The translations under genes were made by a program, and so were the position numbers. From positions 1 to 61,917 of IMG/VR virus record IMGVR_UViG_3300014839_000001: a stretch of DNA of 61,917 bases; one strand, given 5' to 3'. Position 1 is the stretch's first letter; the number at the start of each line of letters is the position of its first letter. Shown piece after piece: positions 4,764 through 25,893 of the stretch. The DNA comes from a virus (lineage: Duplodnaviria; Caudoviricetes). The notes below the pieces were generated by a model, which did no database searches, had not been told where the DNA came from, and saw only the letters and a program-made list of their open reading frames with translations.

Positions 4764-5385
4764 TTAGGCGAATGTCAATTGAAATTGAATAGGTGACAAT
4801 TATCAGGGTATTATTGACAAATTCTTTCTGACATTGCGAGGTGTGTGACTGCCCAGGGTAAGACGACATCGACAACAATGACAAAGAAAACTCTGTACCT
4901 ATATATCTATGTATGCTTAGCAGCATTCTTATCCGCTGAATTAGGGTAATTTCAACGTATCGCGGCGCGGTAGGTTATCCCTCTAATGTCACTACACAGA
5001 ACAGGCTTTGTTAGTGCAATGTCAACATAGCGCGCATGCGGCACGAATACAGGGCTACAGGGTAGCGTTGATAACGCGCGCAATGTCAACGCTACGCGCG
5101 CGCGCATACGCGCGCGAGCAGGCTACGCCATAGCAGGCATTCTCCCTAGCATGCGTACTGTTTAGCGTTTCCCTGTTTCCCGCTGATCTGGAGCCCGCAC
5201 AATGGCGCTAGCGGGCATGCGGGAACTATCCCCCGGATAGCGTCGCATTTCCCCCGCATGGGGGATCGGGCGAGCCCTTGCGTTGCCGATTCTGAGGGTA
5301 TGCGAAAACACCTTTTTAGCTACTGGCAACGCTACGCGTACCCGCTCGCACTGGTTGCGATTTACTACGCGCCGCGTTTCGTGTT

Positions 5386-5414
5386 TTGACATTCTCGCCG
5401 ATTCTTGATAGCTT
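5386..5414 (+). promoter_or_regulatory. Promoter of the plus-strand island
   Basis: TTGACA-N17-TAGCTT with extended TG. Confidence 0.7.
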
Positions 5415-5451
5415 CCCCTTGTATTCATTCACGCGAGGGAAGGAAAGAGAA

Positions 5452-5679
5452 ATGCCCGCCACAAAACGATCCTACGTCATACCGGGCGACACCCTGCCGA
5501 ACGGTGCGCTAGTCGTGGCCGCGAAAAAATGGCTAAACGAGCCAACCGGGCGCATAGTTCTATGTCTCTGGAACAGCGAATACGTGACGTGGAAAACGGA
5601 CGAGAACGGAAACGCGTTTTGGGGTAGTTACTTCGGGGACAATTTCATCGGAGCTGTTAGAGACTTCGAAGACCGCTAG
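5452..5679 (+). CDS. Hypothetical protein
   Basis: GAGGGAAGGAAAG RBS, ATG 5452; EYVTW...WGSYF motif. Confidence 0.7.
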   Translation: MPATKRSYVIPGDTLPNGALVVAAKKWLNEPTGRIVLCLWNSEYVTWKTDENGNAFWGSYFGDNFIGAVRDFEDR

Positions 5680-6712: not shown

Positions 6713-8779
6713 ATGCGAGCGACTGGGCACGACGCACGCACGATTGAAGACGCGATACGCGTTTTGTATTACGGTTCCCGCATGCGCGAGCATGCGCGCG
6801 ACGGATACCCTGAACCGGGAACAAATCAAACGCGGCACGTTCGAGAATATGCCGATGGACGCGTTGACGCACGATTGTCACGCGGCGAGGTTTTCAGCTA
6901 TGGCCCGCATTTCCCGCTGTTTCATTTCATACCCGCTAAAAAACGGCACCCTGCCGTTTTTGTTATCAATGGCGATATATGGCGTGGCCCGCAAAGCCGC
7001 ACAAGTGAACATCAAGCAGACACGCGGCGAATCATCGGACTAACCTTTGCCGCGTCCGTGATTATCCCGTTTTCAGCGCTAGACGGCGCAGGGATCGATT
7101 TAGATTCTATTCGACCGATCGATTCGCGCCCGGACAAGACATGGGCAGAAAAGCATTATGTCAACGCGCCCGATTTTGACGCGTTTGAAACCGCGCTCAA
7201 AATGAAAGAAACCGATGAGCGAAAATCGACCGATTATCGCGGCGAGCCCTGCGCAGAATACGGGACGTGGTCACGTACTTATACCTGGAAAATCGAAGGC
7301 CATACCTTTACTCGTGTTATCAACCGCGCGTGTTACGATTACTCGGACGGCGGTAGCTGGAAATGTTCGGACGATTGGAACAGTCCTGTTTCCGATCATC
7401 GCTATATCAACGGCGGAACAATTGAAAAAGATGCAGACGGCTACTATTTTGAAACGCGGCACCATCGGCTCGGAGATTCGATATTTTCAGCGGTGCGGCA
7501 CGAACGGCTAGCTAGCAGGTTTGCGCAACCGTTTGAATCGAACCGGGACAACGCGCGAGAAACCGTCACGCTGTTTTCATTCGAGGACAGTTATCGCTAC
7601 GATTCAGACGAGGGAAAACCTCATGAAGCAGGCGCGAACGGTTTTTGTATCAATTGCGAGTTACAACTATTTGCTGACGTGACAAAACATCGGCGGGCGC
7701 GATACATATCCTCGTTCGATTCAAACGAGCGGCAACCGCTGTATTTTTTGGCGCAATTACCGCGCGGAAAAATAGAAACCGTCGATGCAGCGATCGACGC
7801 ACTAGCACCGCGCGCCGTTCACGCTGCAATAGCTCGCGAGCGAGAAGTGTTACGGCAGGGTGATATTTTTTACATTCGCACCGATACGGATATGTCCGAG
7901 CTTACCGCGCGAGGATTTATATCCCGCGCACGGCTAACGCAATGGACGCGCGACGCTATCCCGAAACGCGGCGAGGTAGGTTTTCATAAACCGCTCACTG
8001 CAAAACAGCGCCGCGCGATGATGCGCTACGCTCGCAAGCTATACCGCGAACGCCGCGCCGAATTACATACTGCCACGGTTGCAGACTACAATGGTCAGCG
8101 GTTCCCGTTTCAACCGCGCACCGATGCAAACTCCCGCAAACACTGGCGAGACATTCGAAACAGCTACGCGGCCGAATTGACACGCGCGCAAGCCGAATTG
8201 AAAACCGCGCTATGGCGTTTGCCCGCTGCACCATACGGTTACGGCGCTTATCAATCCGGCGCTTATGCGCAAACCGATCATGAAACATTCGAACGCAAAC
8301 AAGCGGCACGCGTGCGGAAATGGAAACGACATATCTACTATGCGCGCCAATCACTAGCACGAGTACAAAAGGACGGTGCGCACGATTCGCTCGGTTTTAG
8401 AAACGCGCGACACGCACGGGACATATATCGAAAACGTGAGGGATTCGCACTAGCGCAATGGCGAGACGCGTTATTGTCCGCACGTTTGAAATTCGAGCCG
8501 TTCGCACTAGCGCATAGCGAATTCAGACAAAACGAGCGCGAGCGAGTGCGCAATGCGTTAGCTATCTACGGCACCGCGCATAGCGCGACTGAAATAGTCC
8601 GCGTGCGCGGCGGTGCTACATACGCGCGCGGGATAGCCCGGCATGTTCCCGATCTTGAGCGCGGGCGCAATGGCGGGCGCGATCATTCTCCGCTAACGTT
8701 AGGGGATGGAGAAACGTTTTATCTAGCGGTGCGCAACACGGTACCGCGTCAGAATCGGCCGCACGTCCGAAACGCGTAA
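6713..8779 (+). CDS. Large hypothetical protein with RQGD motif and C-terminal His cluster
   Basis: 688-aa ORF, AGGGAGGT RBS, LRQGDIF, H..TE, RH, DH..L.L. Confidence 0.8.
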   Translation: MRATGHDARTIEDAIRVLYYGSRMREHARDGYPEPGTNQTRHVREYADGRVDARLSRGEVFSYGPHFPLFHFIPAKKRHPAVFVINGDIWRGPQSRTSEHQADTRRIIGLTFAASVIIPFSALDGAGIDLDSIRPIDSRPDKTWAEKHYVNAPDFDAFETALKMKETDERKSTDYRGEPCAEYGTWSRTYTWKIEGHTFTRVINRACYDYSDGGSWKCSDDWNSPVSDHRYINGGTIEKDADGYYFETRHHRLGDSIFSAVRHERLASRFAQPFESNRDNARETVTLFSFEDSYRYDSDEGKPHEAGANGFCINCELQLFADVTKHRRARYISSFDSNERQPLYFLAQLPRGKIETVDAAIDALAPRAVHAAIAREREVLRQGDIFYIRTDTDMSELTARGFISRARLTQWTRDAIPKRGEVGFHKPLTAKQRRAMMRYARKLYRERRAELHTATVADYNGQRFPFQPRTDANSRKHWRDIRNSYAAELTRAQAELKTALWRLPAAPYGYGAYQSGAYAQTDHETFERKQAARVRKWKRHIYYARQSLARVQKDGAHDSLGFRNARHARDIYRKREGFALAQWRDALLSARLKFEPFALAHSEFRQNERERVRNALAIYGTAHSATEIVRVRGGATYARGIARHVPDLERGRNGGRDHSPLTLGDGETFYLAVRNTVPRQNRPHVRNA

Positions 8780-10124: not shown

Positions 10125-10451
10125 TCAAAACAGATGCCCACAAAAAGGGCATTTCCTTTTGCGGCCAGTAGCCCGCTGCCCTGCCGGGTGCGGCTTATCC
10201 CAAACTTCCAAGTTCTTTTGTCGATTATCGTCCCGCTGCCCATTGACGTGATGCACATTTTCATTTTCACGTAGCGCCCGACCAAGCTTAGCGGTCATTA
10301 CTAACCGATGCTCTACTTCCCAAACTCCCGGTTCGACTTGACAATTCACATAACCGAGTCGCGTAACCGTTCGCGGCATCGCCGCGATCTCCTCCATTGT
10401 CCAGCTACGAGAATACGCAGGCTTGAACTGTCTAGCACTGCTCTGTCCCAT
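10125..10451 (-). CDS. HNH endonuclease
   Basis: EHRLVM...LGR.L...ENVHHVNG.RDDNR..NLEVW; C-terminal CPFC. Confidence 0.88.
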   Translation of the reverse strand: MGQSSARQFKPAYSRSWTMEEIAAMPRTVTRLGYVNCQVEPGVWEVEHRLVMTAKLGRALRENENVHHVNGQRDDNRQKNLEVWDKPHPAGQRATGRKRKCPFCGHLF

Positions 10452-10494
10452 GCCGTTAGAATAGCACACAGGCGTTCTAAGCGGTACTCTAACG

Positions 10495-10993: not shown

Positions 10994-11182
10994 TCAGAGT
11001 TTCCTCGCTTCGGCTGCTCGCACTTGCCGCTTGCTCACTGAAACGACATAGCCCCAAGCGTCACGGATTGTCACTACCCGCGCACCGATAGCGAGAACCA
11101 CGCTCGGGCGAAACGTTGCGTCGTAGGCAACTCGATCGCCCACCTTGATGACTCGGCCGTTTTTCAATTTCATCTGTTTCAT
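10994..11182 (-). CDS. Small basic beta-rich (SH3/KOW-like) protein
   Basis: GGAGGGA RBS; IKVGDRV motif; follows the tmRNA. Confidence 0.55.
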   Translation of the reverse strand: MKQMKLKNGRVIKVGDRVAYDATFRPSVVLAIGARVVTIRDAWGYVVSVSKRQVRAAEARKL

Positions 11183-11207
11183 CGTTCCCTCCTTCGGCGT
11201 TTGAAAT

Positions 11208-11556
11208 TGGAGTAGGGGGGAATCGAACCCCCGTCCGCGAACGCTATTGCCAATCACTTTCCTAACAGCTTTTTTGGGGGCGTGTGTGCCCTCCACCATC
11301 TTGTCTTTCCAAGATGCCAGTTCAGTCTTTCCCGAACCCGCCAGCTCTGTCCGAGCAGGATCAGCGATTGGTGCTGGTTACGCTGAAACCAGGGCCGACT
11401 CGGAGAGGAACGCTTCAATTTCAACGATCCCCCGAGCTGCCTCGTTTGCTACTTCGTCTTTCGCATTCACATTGTCCAATTCAGGACTTGATGCGGTAGG
11501 CCGCAACCCGCTGTAAGTAACTGCCACATTACGCCACGTCGAAACCGATCTACCCC
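11208..11556 (-). ncRNA. ssrA: tmRNA
   Basis: 5' GGGGTAGATCGGTTTCGAC; 3' GACGGGGGTTCGATTCCCCCCTACTCCA; G3.U70 pair; helix 2 pairings (ACAGC/GCTGT, CAGTTACTT/AAGTGATTG); tag frame 11464-11378; CCA not encoded. Confidence 0.93.
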
Positions 11557-11564
11557 GAGTGACA

Positions 11565-11686
11565 ATTGAGAGACGAACCGAGAGGAGTCGAACCTCTCGC
11601 CCGGCGTCAGCCTCGAACCCTCTGAATGGGCGTCCATGGACTCGGCCTTAGCATCCGGCGTCTCAGCCTTGTGCTCGTCTCTCAAT
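11565..11686 (-). ncRNA. tRNA-like RNA of unknown class
   Basis: 14-bp terminal stem stacked on T-arm CGAGAGG-TTCGACT-CCTCTCG; not a canonical cloverleaf. Confidence 0.65.
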
Positions 11687-11701
11687 CTTGCTGCCATCGT
11701 A

Positions 11702-12475
11702 CTACTTGCTCTTCTTCTTGGCAACTGCTTTCTTCGGCTTCGCGGTGCCACGCTTAGCGGCCTTCTTAGCCGCTACGGGCTCGGCCTTGCTCTTGCTGCC
11801 CTTCGGCCGTCCACGCTTCGCAGCGGGCTTGCTGGCCGCTTTCTTCGCCTTGCTGACTGTGTTCTTCCTGTTGGTGCTCGCCTCGTGCTGGCCGGTGCCA
11901 GTAACGAAGTCGAATTTCACGCGGGAGATGTTCCAGCGCAAGAGAGCCTCGGCCTCAGCCTTCGTGTACTTCTTGCCGGTTGTAGGGCTCGTCTTGAAAA
12001 GCTGCTGCGCGTCGGGCTTCAGTAGCTCGAAGCACTTGTCAACGTTGCCCCTGAACTTGCGGACAGCCTTGAGAATGGTCTGCCGGTTGCCCCGCTGTCC
12101 ACCACTCCACTCGGCCTTCCAGTCGATCGATTTGTCATCGATCAGATTACGACCGCTCGGGCCGTCTGCCTTCGGCTTTGTCACCTTGACAGCTTTCTTG
12201 ACGTTCTTGCTTCCAGCCGGTCGTCCGCGCTTCTTGGCAACCTTCTCCGCCTTCGCGGGAGCGCTCTTCTTCGCAGTCTTCTTCGCGGACGACTTCTTGC
12301 TAACTGACTTCGCAGGCGCGGCTGACTTCTTCGCGGCACCCTTCTTCTTGGCAGGAGCCGCCTTCTCGCTCTTGCCGTGGTTCTTGATTGCGTCCTGAAG
12401 CTCGGACGCGCTCATTGCCTTGTAGCCCTCGATGCCAAGCTGCTTCGCCTTGGCCCGGATTTCAAGTGTTCCCAT
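11702..12475 (-). CDS. Histone H1-like Lys/Ala-rich DNA-binding protein
   Basis: Many PAKK/AKK repeats, AT-hook-like KRGRP motifs, N-terminal Rho-N-like segment; GGAGGT RBS. Confidence 0.8.
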   Translation of the reverse strand: MGTLEIRAKAKQLGIEGYKAMSASELQDAIKNHGKSEKAAPAKKKGAAKKSAAPAKSVSKKSSAKKTAKKSAPAKAEKVAKKRGRPAGSKNVKKAVKVTKPKADGPSGRNLIDDKSIDWKAEWSGGQRGNRQTILKAVRKFRGNVDKCFELLKPDAQQLFKTSPTTGKKYTKAEAEALLRWNISRVKFDFVTGTGQHEASTNRKNTVSKAKKAASKPAAKRGRPKGSKSKAEPVAAKKAAKRGTAKPKKAVAKKKSK

Positions 12476-23680: not shown

Positions 23681-23870
23681 TCTTTTTTCTCCGTTTCGTC
23701 CATGCGGCGAACCGATTCACTGACTCAACACAACATCTACCAATGTCAGCGCGGACTGAGTAGTTGCAGGCGTCCGTCATCTTTCCGTTCCTGACCGGCG
23801 AAAGGTAAATCTTGGCAACGATTTCAGCAGGCTTCCCGCATACATCGCACGTTCTAAGTCGTGCCATCAT
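23667..23870 (-). CDS. Small Zn-finger protein
   Basis: GAGGAGG RBS; TCDVCG. Confidence 0.55.
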   Translation of the reverse strand: MMARLRTCDVCGKPAEIVAKIYLSPVRNGKMTDACNYSVRADIGRCCVESVNRFAAWTKRRKKNVDN

Positions 23871-25681
23871 GCCTCCTCGATTGAAATTGTCAGTTCTTTG
23901 GTTTTCTCGCCAATGAGCCATTCCAACTCTTCGCGCATGTCGTCATTGTCAATGAGAAGTTTCTTGAACCTTGATTCGGTTCCCGACCACGGCTGCTTCT
24001 CTGAGTCAATGTAAGTGAAGGTGTTTCCGCTGCGCGTGATTGCACCGTCTTGGAGCCCCAAGTTGATGATTTCAACTTCATGATCGATACAGCCGTTCTC
24101 GGTATCAAAGAGAAACATGCCAGCCATTTCCGGTCGAGCTGTCTTTTGCTTTTCAGCTCGCACCATAACCCACTGGCCTACTGGTACGTCCGTAGCGACG
24201 AGCTTTCCCTTCTTGGCAACCTGCTTTGACCGCTTCTCCTTCTTCTCGCGCTTCAGTTCCAACCGAATAGATGCGTAGAATTTCAACGCTCGACCACCAG
24301 GAGTCGTAATGCCGCCATAACCACTGATTTTGTCAATGACTTGATTCGTCCAGATGAAAAGCGTCTCATCATTAACCGTGGTGACTCGACGCAATGCGCG
24401 GCTCATCATCCGGGCTCGACCCGCTGTGCGATCCTCACCTTCCTCCGGGTCTTTGTTCAGTTCTTCGTTCGGCAGAAGCGACGCCACCGAATCAATTGTC
24501 ACAATATCGGCACCTTCCGGGCCAGCGAGAAGCATCAGAAGTTTGATCGTCTCTTCCGCCGTGCTCGGCCGGTGAATCAGCAACTCGTCTATGTCGCCGC
24601 CAAGCTTCTTGAACCACTTGGAATCAAAGATGCCCTCGCTATCGATGAGCGCGCATAGCTCGCCCCGCTGCTGAGCCAACACCATTGTCATGTACGCAAG
24701 AAACGATTTGCCGCTTGAATTGTGAGAGCAAAGGCCATCGGCAAAAAAGGTTTTGGTGCTTGTACCAAAAACGCAAACTTCTTGTTCCCCAACATACCGC
24801 ACTTTTTTCACTGTTGCATAAACGTCTCGACCGTCAGTATACCCGTTCTGCCCATGTGTGGTGAATGCCTTACCAACCCAAAACTTGTTGTCAAACCTTT
24901 TTGGTTTCACTTGACCCAAAAAACGCATGACTTCAGGAACACCACCGCAAACATAAACGCCATGACAGCCAGTACCATTTCCGTTTGCTGACCTGTGATG
25001 AACTTGAAAACCAAGTTTTTTCATTAATTCAAGTGCGTAATCCAACACAACGCCCTCGTTTTGAGAAAAGCCAAACCGGCCGCCACTAAGCCAACCTTCA
25101 CCATCAACTAACCCCGCCAAGTATGTTGCCGCTTCCGCATTTTCAGGCTTGTCCCAGCGATCCCCCAACCAAAGTATTTTGTCACCAACTGAAAGATTGC
25201 GCGACGTTATCCACATCGGCGATTTATATGTTTTGTTCAAGGTCAACCACCCGTGACTTGCGCTAGCCACAGTTTTTGTTCCCTTGTCCGTTGTAATTTC
25301 AAAACACGGCAATACCCGCCGATTGTTGCGCCCCATTGTTGACAATTGAAGTTTACGCTTTTTTCCTCGTCCACCTGGCCCAAATTCGTCAAACCCGACC
25401 AACTCATTACCGCATTTCAGTTCTTCTGCTGGCAACCATTCCAGGTCAGACGTAAGGATCGCCGTATCAGGCGAAACACAGTAATCGCCAAAGATTTCAA
25501 CATGACGACCGCGAGGAAACCCGCCGCCCGTAATTCGTTCTACTGTGAGACTTCCGCACGGCACGCGCTTGACCTCGTATTTGTCATCGCTGGCGAACCC
25601 GAGCACTGGGGCTTTCATTGCCGTGTTGATAGCGCTGGCTAAAGCGGCGGCAGGTGAAGCAGTCCTTCCTTTGCGCGCCAT
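23867..25681 (-). CDS. recA: RecA-like recombinase containing an intein
   Basis: GGFPRGRHVEIFG..|SSGKS, LIDSE, IDSVASL, TPGGRALKFYASIRL. Confidence 0.93.
   Translation of the reverse strand: MARKGRTASPAAALASAINTAMKAPVLGFASDDKYEVKRVPCGSLTVERITGGGFPRGRHVEIFGDYCVSPDTAILTSDLEWLPAEELKCGNELVGFDEFGPGGRGKKRKLQLSTMGRNNRRVLPCFEITTDKGTKTVASASHGWLTLNKTYKSPMWITSRNLSVGDKILWLGDRWDKPENAEAATYLAGLVDGEGWLSGGRFGFSQNEGVVLDYALELMKKLGFQVHHRSANGNGTGCHGVYVCGGVPEVMRFLGQVKPKRFDNKFWVGKAFTTHGQNGYTDGRDVYATVKKVRYVGEQEVCVFGTSTKTFFADGLCSHNSSGKSFLAYMTMVLAQQRGELCALIDSEGIFDSKWFKKLGGDIDELLIHRPSTAEETIKLLMLLAGPEGADIVTIDSVASLLPNEELNKDPEEGEDRTAGRARMMSRALRRVTTVNDETLFIWTNQVIDKISGYGGITTPGGRALKFYASIRLELKREKKEKRSKQVAKKGKLVATDVPVGQWVMVRAEKQKTARPEMAGMFLFDTENGCIDHEVEIINLGLQDGAITRSGNTFTYIDSEKQPWSGTESRFKKLLIDNDDMREELEWLIGEKTKELTISIEEA
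24719..25480 (-). mobile_element. Intein (254 aa) with LAGLIDADG motif in the RecA Walker A loop
   Basis: Y|CVSPDT ... ASASHGW ... YLAGLVDGEG ... FFADGLCSHN|S. Confidence 0.92.
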
Positions 25682-25893
25682 TAAGGGTACGCTACTTTCA
25701 TGAGCACTTCGAACCGAATCGCCTTTCCAACATGCGGGCACCCAACGTGCGTTTCAAAACTCACGCACCCTGCGCCGTCACGCCTTATAAGTGGTTGTTC
25801 ATCTGATTCGATCAAAAGTTGGTCATGAACAGCCTTTGACGCAGCAGAAACCAACCGCTTTGTCAACTGACCCTCTGGTGAATTAGCGTCCAC
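25681..25893 (-). CDS. Hypothetical protein
   Basis: AGGAGGG RBS; TAATG coupling to recA. Confidence 0.5.
   Translation of the reverse strand: MDANSPEGQLTKRLVSAASKAVHDQLLIESDEQPLIRRDGAGCVSFETHVGCPHVGKAIRFEVLMKVAYP

Follow-up and report, generated by a model that had tools for sequence, protein, structure and literature searches.

We analysed a stretch of 61,917 bp (hereafter, the window), which is a complete virus record, IMGVR_UViG_3300014839_000001, with repeated ends (terminal repeats) and a G+C content of 51%. Genes for terminase, capsid, baseplate and tape-measure proteins identify it as a tailed phage, and it carries a replication set of its own, consisting of a DnaE-type polymerase, DnaB, a primase, a helicase and a RecA-like protein. 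The ORF for the latter (23867-25741, minus strand) encodes 624 aa, with the RecA domain confined to residues 340-511 and a weak Intein_splicing match at residues 145-341; its front part may be an intein or an N-terminal extension. Close to its end, the long leftward block of replication genes includes a tmRNA gene, preceded on the 5′ side by a 257-aa ORF and a HIRAN-domain ORF and followed on the 3′ side by two small ORFs and then an HNH endonuclease gene. The HNH_3 endonuclease ORF (10125-10469, minus strand) closes the operon that holds the tmRNA; in the mycobacteriophage Bxz1, an HNH gene likewise lies within the tRNA/tmRNA array. The features of the locus, in the direction of transcription, are as follows.

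11696-11724, minus strand: weak promoter-like site (TTGCCA, 17 nt, TACGAT; 9/12) about 140 nt 5′ of the tmRNA, from a consensus scan
11572-11665, minus strand: leader with a T-arm-like hairpin, from a weak ARAGORN '?' call at -ps80
11208-11556, minus strand: mature tmRNA, 349 nt, from G1 to the discriminator A (Rfam, acceptor/T-arm complementarity and fold)
11550-11556, minus strand: 5′ strand of the acceptor, G3 at 11554, pairing with 11209-11215
11538-11546, minus strand: GGUUUCGAC element of the tRNA-like domain, D-loop analogue, invariant in 13/13 family members, an ascertained invariance given that these nine bases anchored the search pattern by which the members were collected
11492-11505, minus strand: first hairpin, at the pseudoknot 1 site, 5 bp, loop CCUA (minimum free energy, MFE, and two-sequence consensus folds)
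11474-11487, minus strand: second hairpin, 4 bp, ending 9 nt 5′ of the resume codon (MFE and two-sequence consensus folds)
11378-11464, minus strand: tag frame, with resume codon GCG at 11464-11462, 28 codons and stop TAA at 11380-11378 (translation, Rfam alignment and family context)
11408-11422, minus strand: codons of the EIEAF core, common to at least 16 distinct tag sequences and Bxz1
11374-11392, minus strand: helix 5 hairpin containing the stop codon (two-sequence consensus fold)
11275-11359, minus strand: compact 3′ domain of four simple hairpins at the usual site of pseudoknots 2-4 (MFE and centroid folds)
11209-11232, minus strand: T arm (11216-11232) and 3′ strand of the acceptor (11209-11215, U70 at 11211)
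10994-11182, minus strand: 62-codon ORF that begins 26 nt past the tmRNA and has a GGAGG-type ribosome site

No terminator-like site was recognized between the tmRNA and the 62-codon ORF. The promoter scan covered 2.6 kb and returned three sites, versus 0.7 expected. The leader hairpin has a stem of 5-6 bp and a 7-nt UUCGACU loop, lies 25-45 nt 5′ of the tmRNA and has no acceptor stem. As a tRNA it was rejected, with no Rfam tRNA match at E ≤ 5, and its likeness to the tRNAs that neighbour the tmRNAs of other carriers was not significant; it could represent the decayed tRNA of a former array or serve as a processing signal.

Positions 11208-11556 are confirmed to encode a real, complete one-piece phage tmRNA, the ends given in the original prediction coinciding exactly with the first acceptor base and the discriminator A. 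The Rfam model RF00023 matches 11205-11556 on the minus strand over model positions 1-374 (57.6 bits, E = 6e-20; gathering threshold 47) and is the sole gathering-level Rfam match in the window; its score exceeds the cut-off by only 10 bits, and the posterior probability is low in the central part of the alignment, including the 3′ domain. The predicted alanyl tRNA-like domain with G3.U70 proved to be complete, with acceptor, T arm and discriminator A all present: the acceptor stem comprises 7 bp (nt 1-7 with nt 342-348), with G3 opposite a U, and the T arm consists of a 5-bp stem closed by a 7-nt loop. The CCA end is not encoded in the window tmRNA, nor is it in any of the 13 tmRNA genes of the family described below (0/13), all of which (13/13) keep G3.U70. 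Across these 13 tmRNAs, compensatory changes occur at three of the seven acceptor pairs and four of the five T-arm pairs, and helix 2 covaries, too.

The predicted fold of the molecule is unusually stable, with an MFE of -139.4 kcal/mol compared to -118.0 ± 5.2 kcal/mol for 100 shuffled sequences (z = -4.13), none of which was as stable. The MFE structure reproduces the ring layout of tmRNA, with the long helix 2 closed and the tag region in a loop. At the sites of pseudoknot 1 (H-type) and pseudoknots 2-4, only nested hairpins are drawn, by folding tools that are blind to pseudoknots and from the two sequences of the subtype. Hairpins where pseudoknots are expected would set the window RNA apart from Bxz1-type genes; such a replacement fits the low Rfam score and probably accounts for the behaviour of ARAGORN. 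Indeed, comparison with ARAGORN, which had been proposed as a check, did not recover the gene: the program called 0 tmRNA genes in the window and missed the locus at every threshold down to -ps50, with only spurious calls, built on the upstream hairpin, at -ps50/60. More generally, ARAGORN misses four of the 12 members of the family that were run through it.

Translation of the frame at 11464-11378 reproduces all 28 residues that had been read from it, and the tag does not end in LAA. The EIEAF core is followed by nine codons and the stop, the tag shares its last five residues, ALVSA, with a family member from a viral contig (L274), the net charge is -4 (counted by hand), and the N-terminal half departs from the family consensus. 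Neither the tag nor the longer in-frame ORF matched any Pfam family at E ≤ 10. In trans-translation the charged alanine precedes the encoded residues, so that 29 residues would be added to a stalled product. The three host tags that we read, described below, have 9-12 residues and end in ALAA, compared to the 28 codons in the window. The most frequent bacterial tag length is reported to be 10 aa (PMC11915505), and the window tag is nearly three times as long, in line with the original prediction that it exceeds the usual bacterial length.

The original prediction proposed that the Bxz1 tag is also long and contains EIEAF. This turned out to be accurate: ARAGORN run on NC_004687 returns a tag of 25 codons in which EIEAF is present. 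In the RefSeq record of Bxz1, no feature is annotated at this tmRNA (5060-5494), which falls in a 540-nt gap between tRNA-Arg and tRNA-Gln genes. To collect further members, we used a pattern consisting of GGTTTCGAC, a gap of 100-130 nt and the EIEAF codons, with exact matches to both anchor and motif. In IMG/VR, the pattern retrieved eight viral stretches, five of which are Rfam tmRNAs; the other three are long protein ORFs and were rejected as tmRNAs. In 185,579 prokaryote species genomes (one per species), it matched 59 stretches, only two of them with a tRNA-like domain as judged by a test of the gene ends. Both of these genomic copies were confirmed by Rfam and are located in tRNA arrays on MAG contigs of 9.7 and 14.9 kb. 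In metagenomes, 101 stretches were found, 13 with EIEAF tags, several of them on contigs that had already been found. With a wider anchor (TTCGAC only), applied to viral contigs, 113 matches in new loci were examined among the matches listed, and one new member, L274, was identified. A blastn search with the window locus gave no match among 50,697 phage records, and the same search with the tmRNA of L034, its nearest relative (see below), returned only 30-nt pieces of the T arm.

Altogether, at least 16 distinct EIEAF tag-coding sequences, including that of the window, were identified, all of them on phage or phage-like contigs. The named carriers comprise about 205 records of cluster C (Bxz1-type) Mycobacterium phages and, further, Bxz1, Phabba, Phrappuccino, Settecandela and nine Gordonia phage records; in the GenBank records of some of the Gordonia and Mycobacterium phages, the tag peptide is annotated. 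Of the other carriers scanned with ARAGORN, 8/11 have tRNA genes on the scanned stretch. Both MAGs that contain phage-type copies also encode other, separate tmRNAs, which score 153-158 bits and have 12-residue tags that end in ALAA; this argues that the EIEAF tag type is not that of the host. Within the limit of a scan by exact pattern matches, the EIEAF motif was found in no chromosomal tmRNA. One of the two MAGs (G006, which holds L034) is a 5.1-Mb bin in which five tmRNA genes, located on different contigs, exceed the Rfam cut-off; one of these has a 25-residue tag ending in ALAA, and the bin is probably a mixture of organisms.

The family tags are 25-32 codons long and acidic, with net charges of about -4 to -7 (hand count for five of the 16 tags), and the EIEAF core is located 7-11 codons before the stop. 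None of them ends in LAA; every one ends in A or V preceded by L, V, I or A. In the majority subfamily, the core is preceded by T-[DE]-A-D-F and followed by a segment starting with A-N. The Gordonia phages Sixama, Boopy, BlueNGold, Forza, Mareelih and GMA2 and the Mycobacterium phages Phabba, Phrappuccino and Settecandela share this tag type, with D-F before the core and A-N after it, whereas the window and L034 lack both elements, which are also missing from the cluster C tags. The presence of these residues is thus a subfamily marker rather than a family criterion, and the window tag does not carry it. Past the core, most tags resemble an ordinary short tag, consisting of A-N, 5-9 further residues and a hydrophobic end, and in the member L102 (1740-2182) ARAGORN picks a post-core start which gives an 11-residue tag. 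This resemblance suggests that the long tags arose through extension of a normal tag at its front.

The conservation of the tag reflects selection on the peptide and not on the RNA alone. This assessment is based on codon positions in 11 sequences of the majority subfamily, at the 11 codons outside the core fixed by the search. The numbers of variable sites at codon positions 1, 2 and 3 are 6, 4 and 11, respectively, the last figure representing all third positions. Pairwise comparison at the eight flanking codons that are best kept gave 173 synonymous differences as opposed to 94 non-synonymous ones, and many of the latter are D/E or T/S exchanges. Over the whole molecule, the tmRNA bodies are only about half identical (mean column identity 51%). 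The conserved coding pattern of change indicates that the frame is translated in the family.

The window RNA represents, as judged by alignment and predicted structure, a compact, divergent subtype with a single known relative. This relative, L034, is the copy on the 9.7-kb MAG contig, and its tmRNA is identical to that of the window at 197 of 371 alignment columns; the two share residues around the core as well as the RNA layout. The subtype-specific helices rest on these two sequences. Comparison by eye revealed changes that preserve pairing: in the first 5′ hairpin, two of the five pairs differ on both sides, and in helix 5, the closing U-A pair is replaced by C-G in L034, coupled with a change of the stop from TAA to TAG. 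A search for further members of the subtype with two conserved stretches separated by a gap matched 14 viral contigs, with 0/14 tmRNAs.

Taken together, these data lead us to propose the following mode of action. The tmRNA would be transcribed together with the leftward replication block and released from the transcript by host RNase P and host 3′ processing enzymes. The CCA end missing from the gene would have to be supplied by the host CCA-adding enzyme, after which host AlaRS would charge the RNA with alanine via G3.U70. Host SmpB and EF-Tu would then deliver it to stalled ribosomes; host SmpB would be needed since the phage has none. As originally predicted, no SmpB gene is present in the window (PF01668, 0 matches, with the same search positive in all 10 bacterial control genomes), and SmpB was likewise found in 0/5 other family or related records. 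Translation would resume at the GCG at 11464, add alanine and the 28 encoded residues and terminate at the TAA within helix 5. The benefit to the phage would be extra rescue capacity and clearance of truncated proteins while mRNAs are being cut during infection. That the window encodes a working tmRNA of the EIEAF family which relies on host factors seems highly probable to us; the explanation as a whole, with every one of these steps, the two-part tag discussed next and the benefit to the phage, we consider reasonably probable.

The E. coli tag is a two-part signal, with the front read by the adaptor SspB and the hydrophobic end by the protease ClpXP. By analogy, and given that the acidic core is so strongly kept, the EIEAF region may serve as a conserved element for a specific partner, comparable to SspB, while the hydrophobic C-terminal end would still lead to a host protease. 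In our estimation, the chances are about even that the tag directs degradation in this sense and carries a recognition element of its own, and it is probable, from the pattern of conservation, that the EIEAF tag is read by something specific. The main alternative, raised already in the original prediction, holds that the tag is not a degradation signal but spares the fragments from host proteases or redirects them, for example, to a sensor, into sequestration or into signalling. The lack of LAA in all family members, the length of 25-32 codons, the strong acidity and the internal rather than C-terminal location of the most conserved part are all compatible with such a role. Yet every tag ends in small or aliphatic residues typical of C-terminal degrons, whereas avoidance of ClpXP alone could have been achieved with a charged tag end. 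Moreover, there is no co-occurring phage partner, the one shared protein being present in one of five records, and no ClpP gene is found in the window. The family tag ends thus resemble degradation tags and the evidence leans against sparing, so that we regard sparing or redirection as unlikely. Somewhat less remote, and still doubtful, is the idea that a dedicated reader, distinct from ClpX and from the known adaptors, recognizes the EIEAF core as a short linear motif. If this were true, the phages would use their own tmRNA to relabel every product of stalled ribosomes and hand it to a pathway of their choice, such as a different protease, a translational-stress sensor that times lysis or a block of an abortive-infection trigger.

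The resume codon, which had been inferred from the upstream sequence context, remains the best choice on inspection. The GCG is aligned by Rfam with high posterior probability, the bases 5′ of it fit the upstream context of the family, and its position at nt 93 is close to the coding starts at nt 95-96 of six of the eight ARAGORN-called family tmRNAs (nt 96 in Bxz1). The original prediction had named a downstream resume codon, such as GCA AAC, that gives a host-like tag as the observation that would speak against it. A GCA AAC does occur in frame at 11449, 15 nt downstream of the GCG, and resumption there would produce a 23-residue tag in the same frame, shortened by five N-terminal residues and with the core and the tag end unaffected; such a tag would still not resemble that of a host. 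The bases upstream of this site presumably resemble the resume-codon context of E. coli, and the downstream start picked by ARAGORN for L102 provides a precedent; however, the site lies 24 nt from the last 5′ hairpin, instead of 9 nt, and we consider this start improbable.

A further alternative is that the tmRNA is a passenger, an unused and perhaps decaying gene acquired with part of the tRNA/tmRNA array of another phage. Two related phages do not carry the tmRNA, namely, a 68-kb record whose helicase shows 46% identity and a 70.8-kb contig whose terminase shows 66% identity, so that the tmRNA is an accessory gene, dispensable in this type of phage. The window has 0 tRNA genes over its 61.9 kb according to ARAGORN, versus the tRNA genes seen in most other carriers, a T-arm-like remnant lies just 5′ and an HNH endonuclease gene 3′ of the tmRNA, and the front half of the tag is divergent. 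Against the passenger scenario, the tRNA-like domain is perfect in all its elements, the frame, its stop and helix 5 are intact, and L034 keeps the same layout through compensatory changes. Furthermore, the identical sequence recurs in many peat and permafrost sequencing runs of different studies, peat and permafrost being the habitat of this phage; the sequence also recurs in wetland runs. Neither is the gene an integration remnant, given that it is full length and that no tyrosine integrase is encoded in the window. We therefore consider a non-functional passenger quite improbable. The locus is covered in part by contigs assembled in three metatranscriptome runs, which align at 11482-11707, 11254-11404 and 11078-11251 with 0-1 differences; one of them joins the leader to the 5′ part of the tmRNA and another joins the 3′ end to the next ORF. 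These matches are a weak hint of transcription, with carry-over of DNA into the libraries as a possible source.

The other phage proteins do not assign the phage to a host. The capsid protein is about 40% identical to those of Bacillus and Clostridium phages, the terminase about 23% identical to those of assorted phages, and DnaE about 30% identical to homologues from Gordonia and Streptomyces phages and gut phage fragments; no relatives of the capsid were found in bacterial genomes. The sole lead to a host is a terminase relative encoded by a contig that was binned with a MAG of Acidobacteria; the tmRNA of the MAG itself has a 9-residue tag ending in ALAA. On the strand opposite to the tmRNA, a 688-aa ORF (6713-8779, plus strand) contains two short domains that are 38-51% identical to ORFs of a 145-kb tmRNA-carrying phage record (G003), the matches falling in two separate ORFs of the latter. 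This protein was considered as a phage-encoded reader of the tag and rejected, being common to one of five records (G003) and missing from the other four.

The last alternative, and a very improbable one, is that the RNA is a decoy whose tRNA-like domain sequesters host SmpB or AlaRS and thereby blocks host trans-translation, with the frame left untranslated: phage RNAs consisting of the tRNA-like domain alone do exist and inhibit tmRNA (PMC4131195, PMC11915505), the tag-less RNA of mycobacteriophage DS6A being a known tmRNA derivative of this kind (PMC4131195), and the body of the window RNA is reduced, but the window keeps a full, open frame with a canonical start distance and a stop within helix 5, and the family codons show a coding pattern, whereas a decoy would not retain 28 codons.

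The functional tmRNA that we favour shares the architecture and the presumed cycle with canonical SsrA (RF00023, E. coli). It has most in common with the tmRNAs of Bxz1 and other cluster C phages (Bixzunavirus), which are likewise one-piece tmRNAs encoded by phages that lack SmpB, have G3.U70 in the tRNA-like domain and no encoded CCA, and specify a long, acidic tag that has an EIEAF core and a hydrophobic, non-LAA end. By contrast, Bxz1-type genes are about 434 nt long, reside in arrays of 20-35 tRNA genes and are detected by ARAGORN, whereas the window gene has 349 nt, stands alone and is missed by this program; the Bxz1-type genes are carried by myophages of 154-161 kb with about 63% G+C, as opposed to 61.9 kb and 51% G+C in the window. 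In the literature, phage tmRNAs are known from cluster C phages, Wildcat, phage G and huge phages (PMC4131195, PMC9004378, PMC1475703, PMC7162821), and ARAGORN finds a tmRNA in about 2% of isolate phage genomes (402/18,146; PMC9004378). In the article texts covered by our literature search, we found neither an account of the shared EIEAF motif or of its function nor the sequence of the cluster C tag.

The existence of phage tmRNAs has been known since Bxz1, and ideas on their purpose are still guesswork. What is new here is a compact tmRNA that is invisible to ARAGORN and unaccompanied by tRNA genes, and the extension of the EIEAF family from phages of Mycobacteriales to an uncultured peat phage. 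The standard finder evidently overlooks some phage tmRNAs. That a small phage without tRNA genes carries a tmRNA suggests that the tmRNA is valuable on its own. One tag motif, under selection at the level of the peptide, spans very different phages, from 160-kb mycobacteriophages to a 62-kb peat phage, and the question of what these tmRNAs are for thereby becomes concrete: which partner binds the EIEAF motif? As cluster C phages grow on Mycobacterium smegmatis mc2 155, the identity of the reader can be addressed in a laboratory strain.
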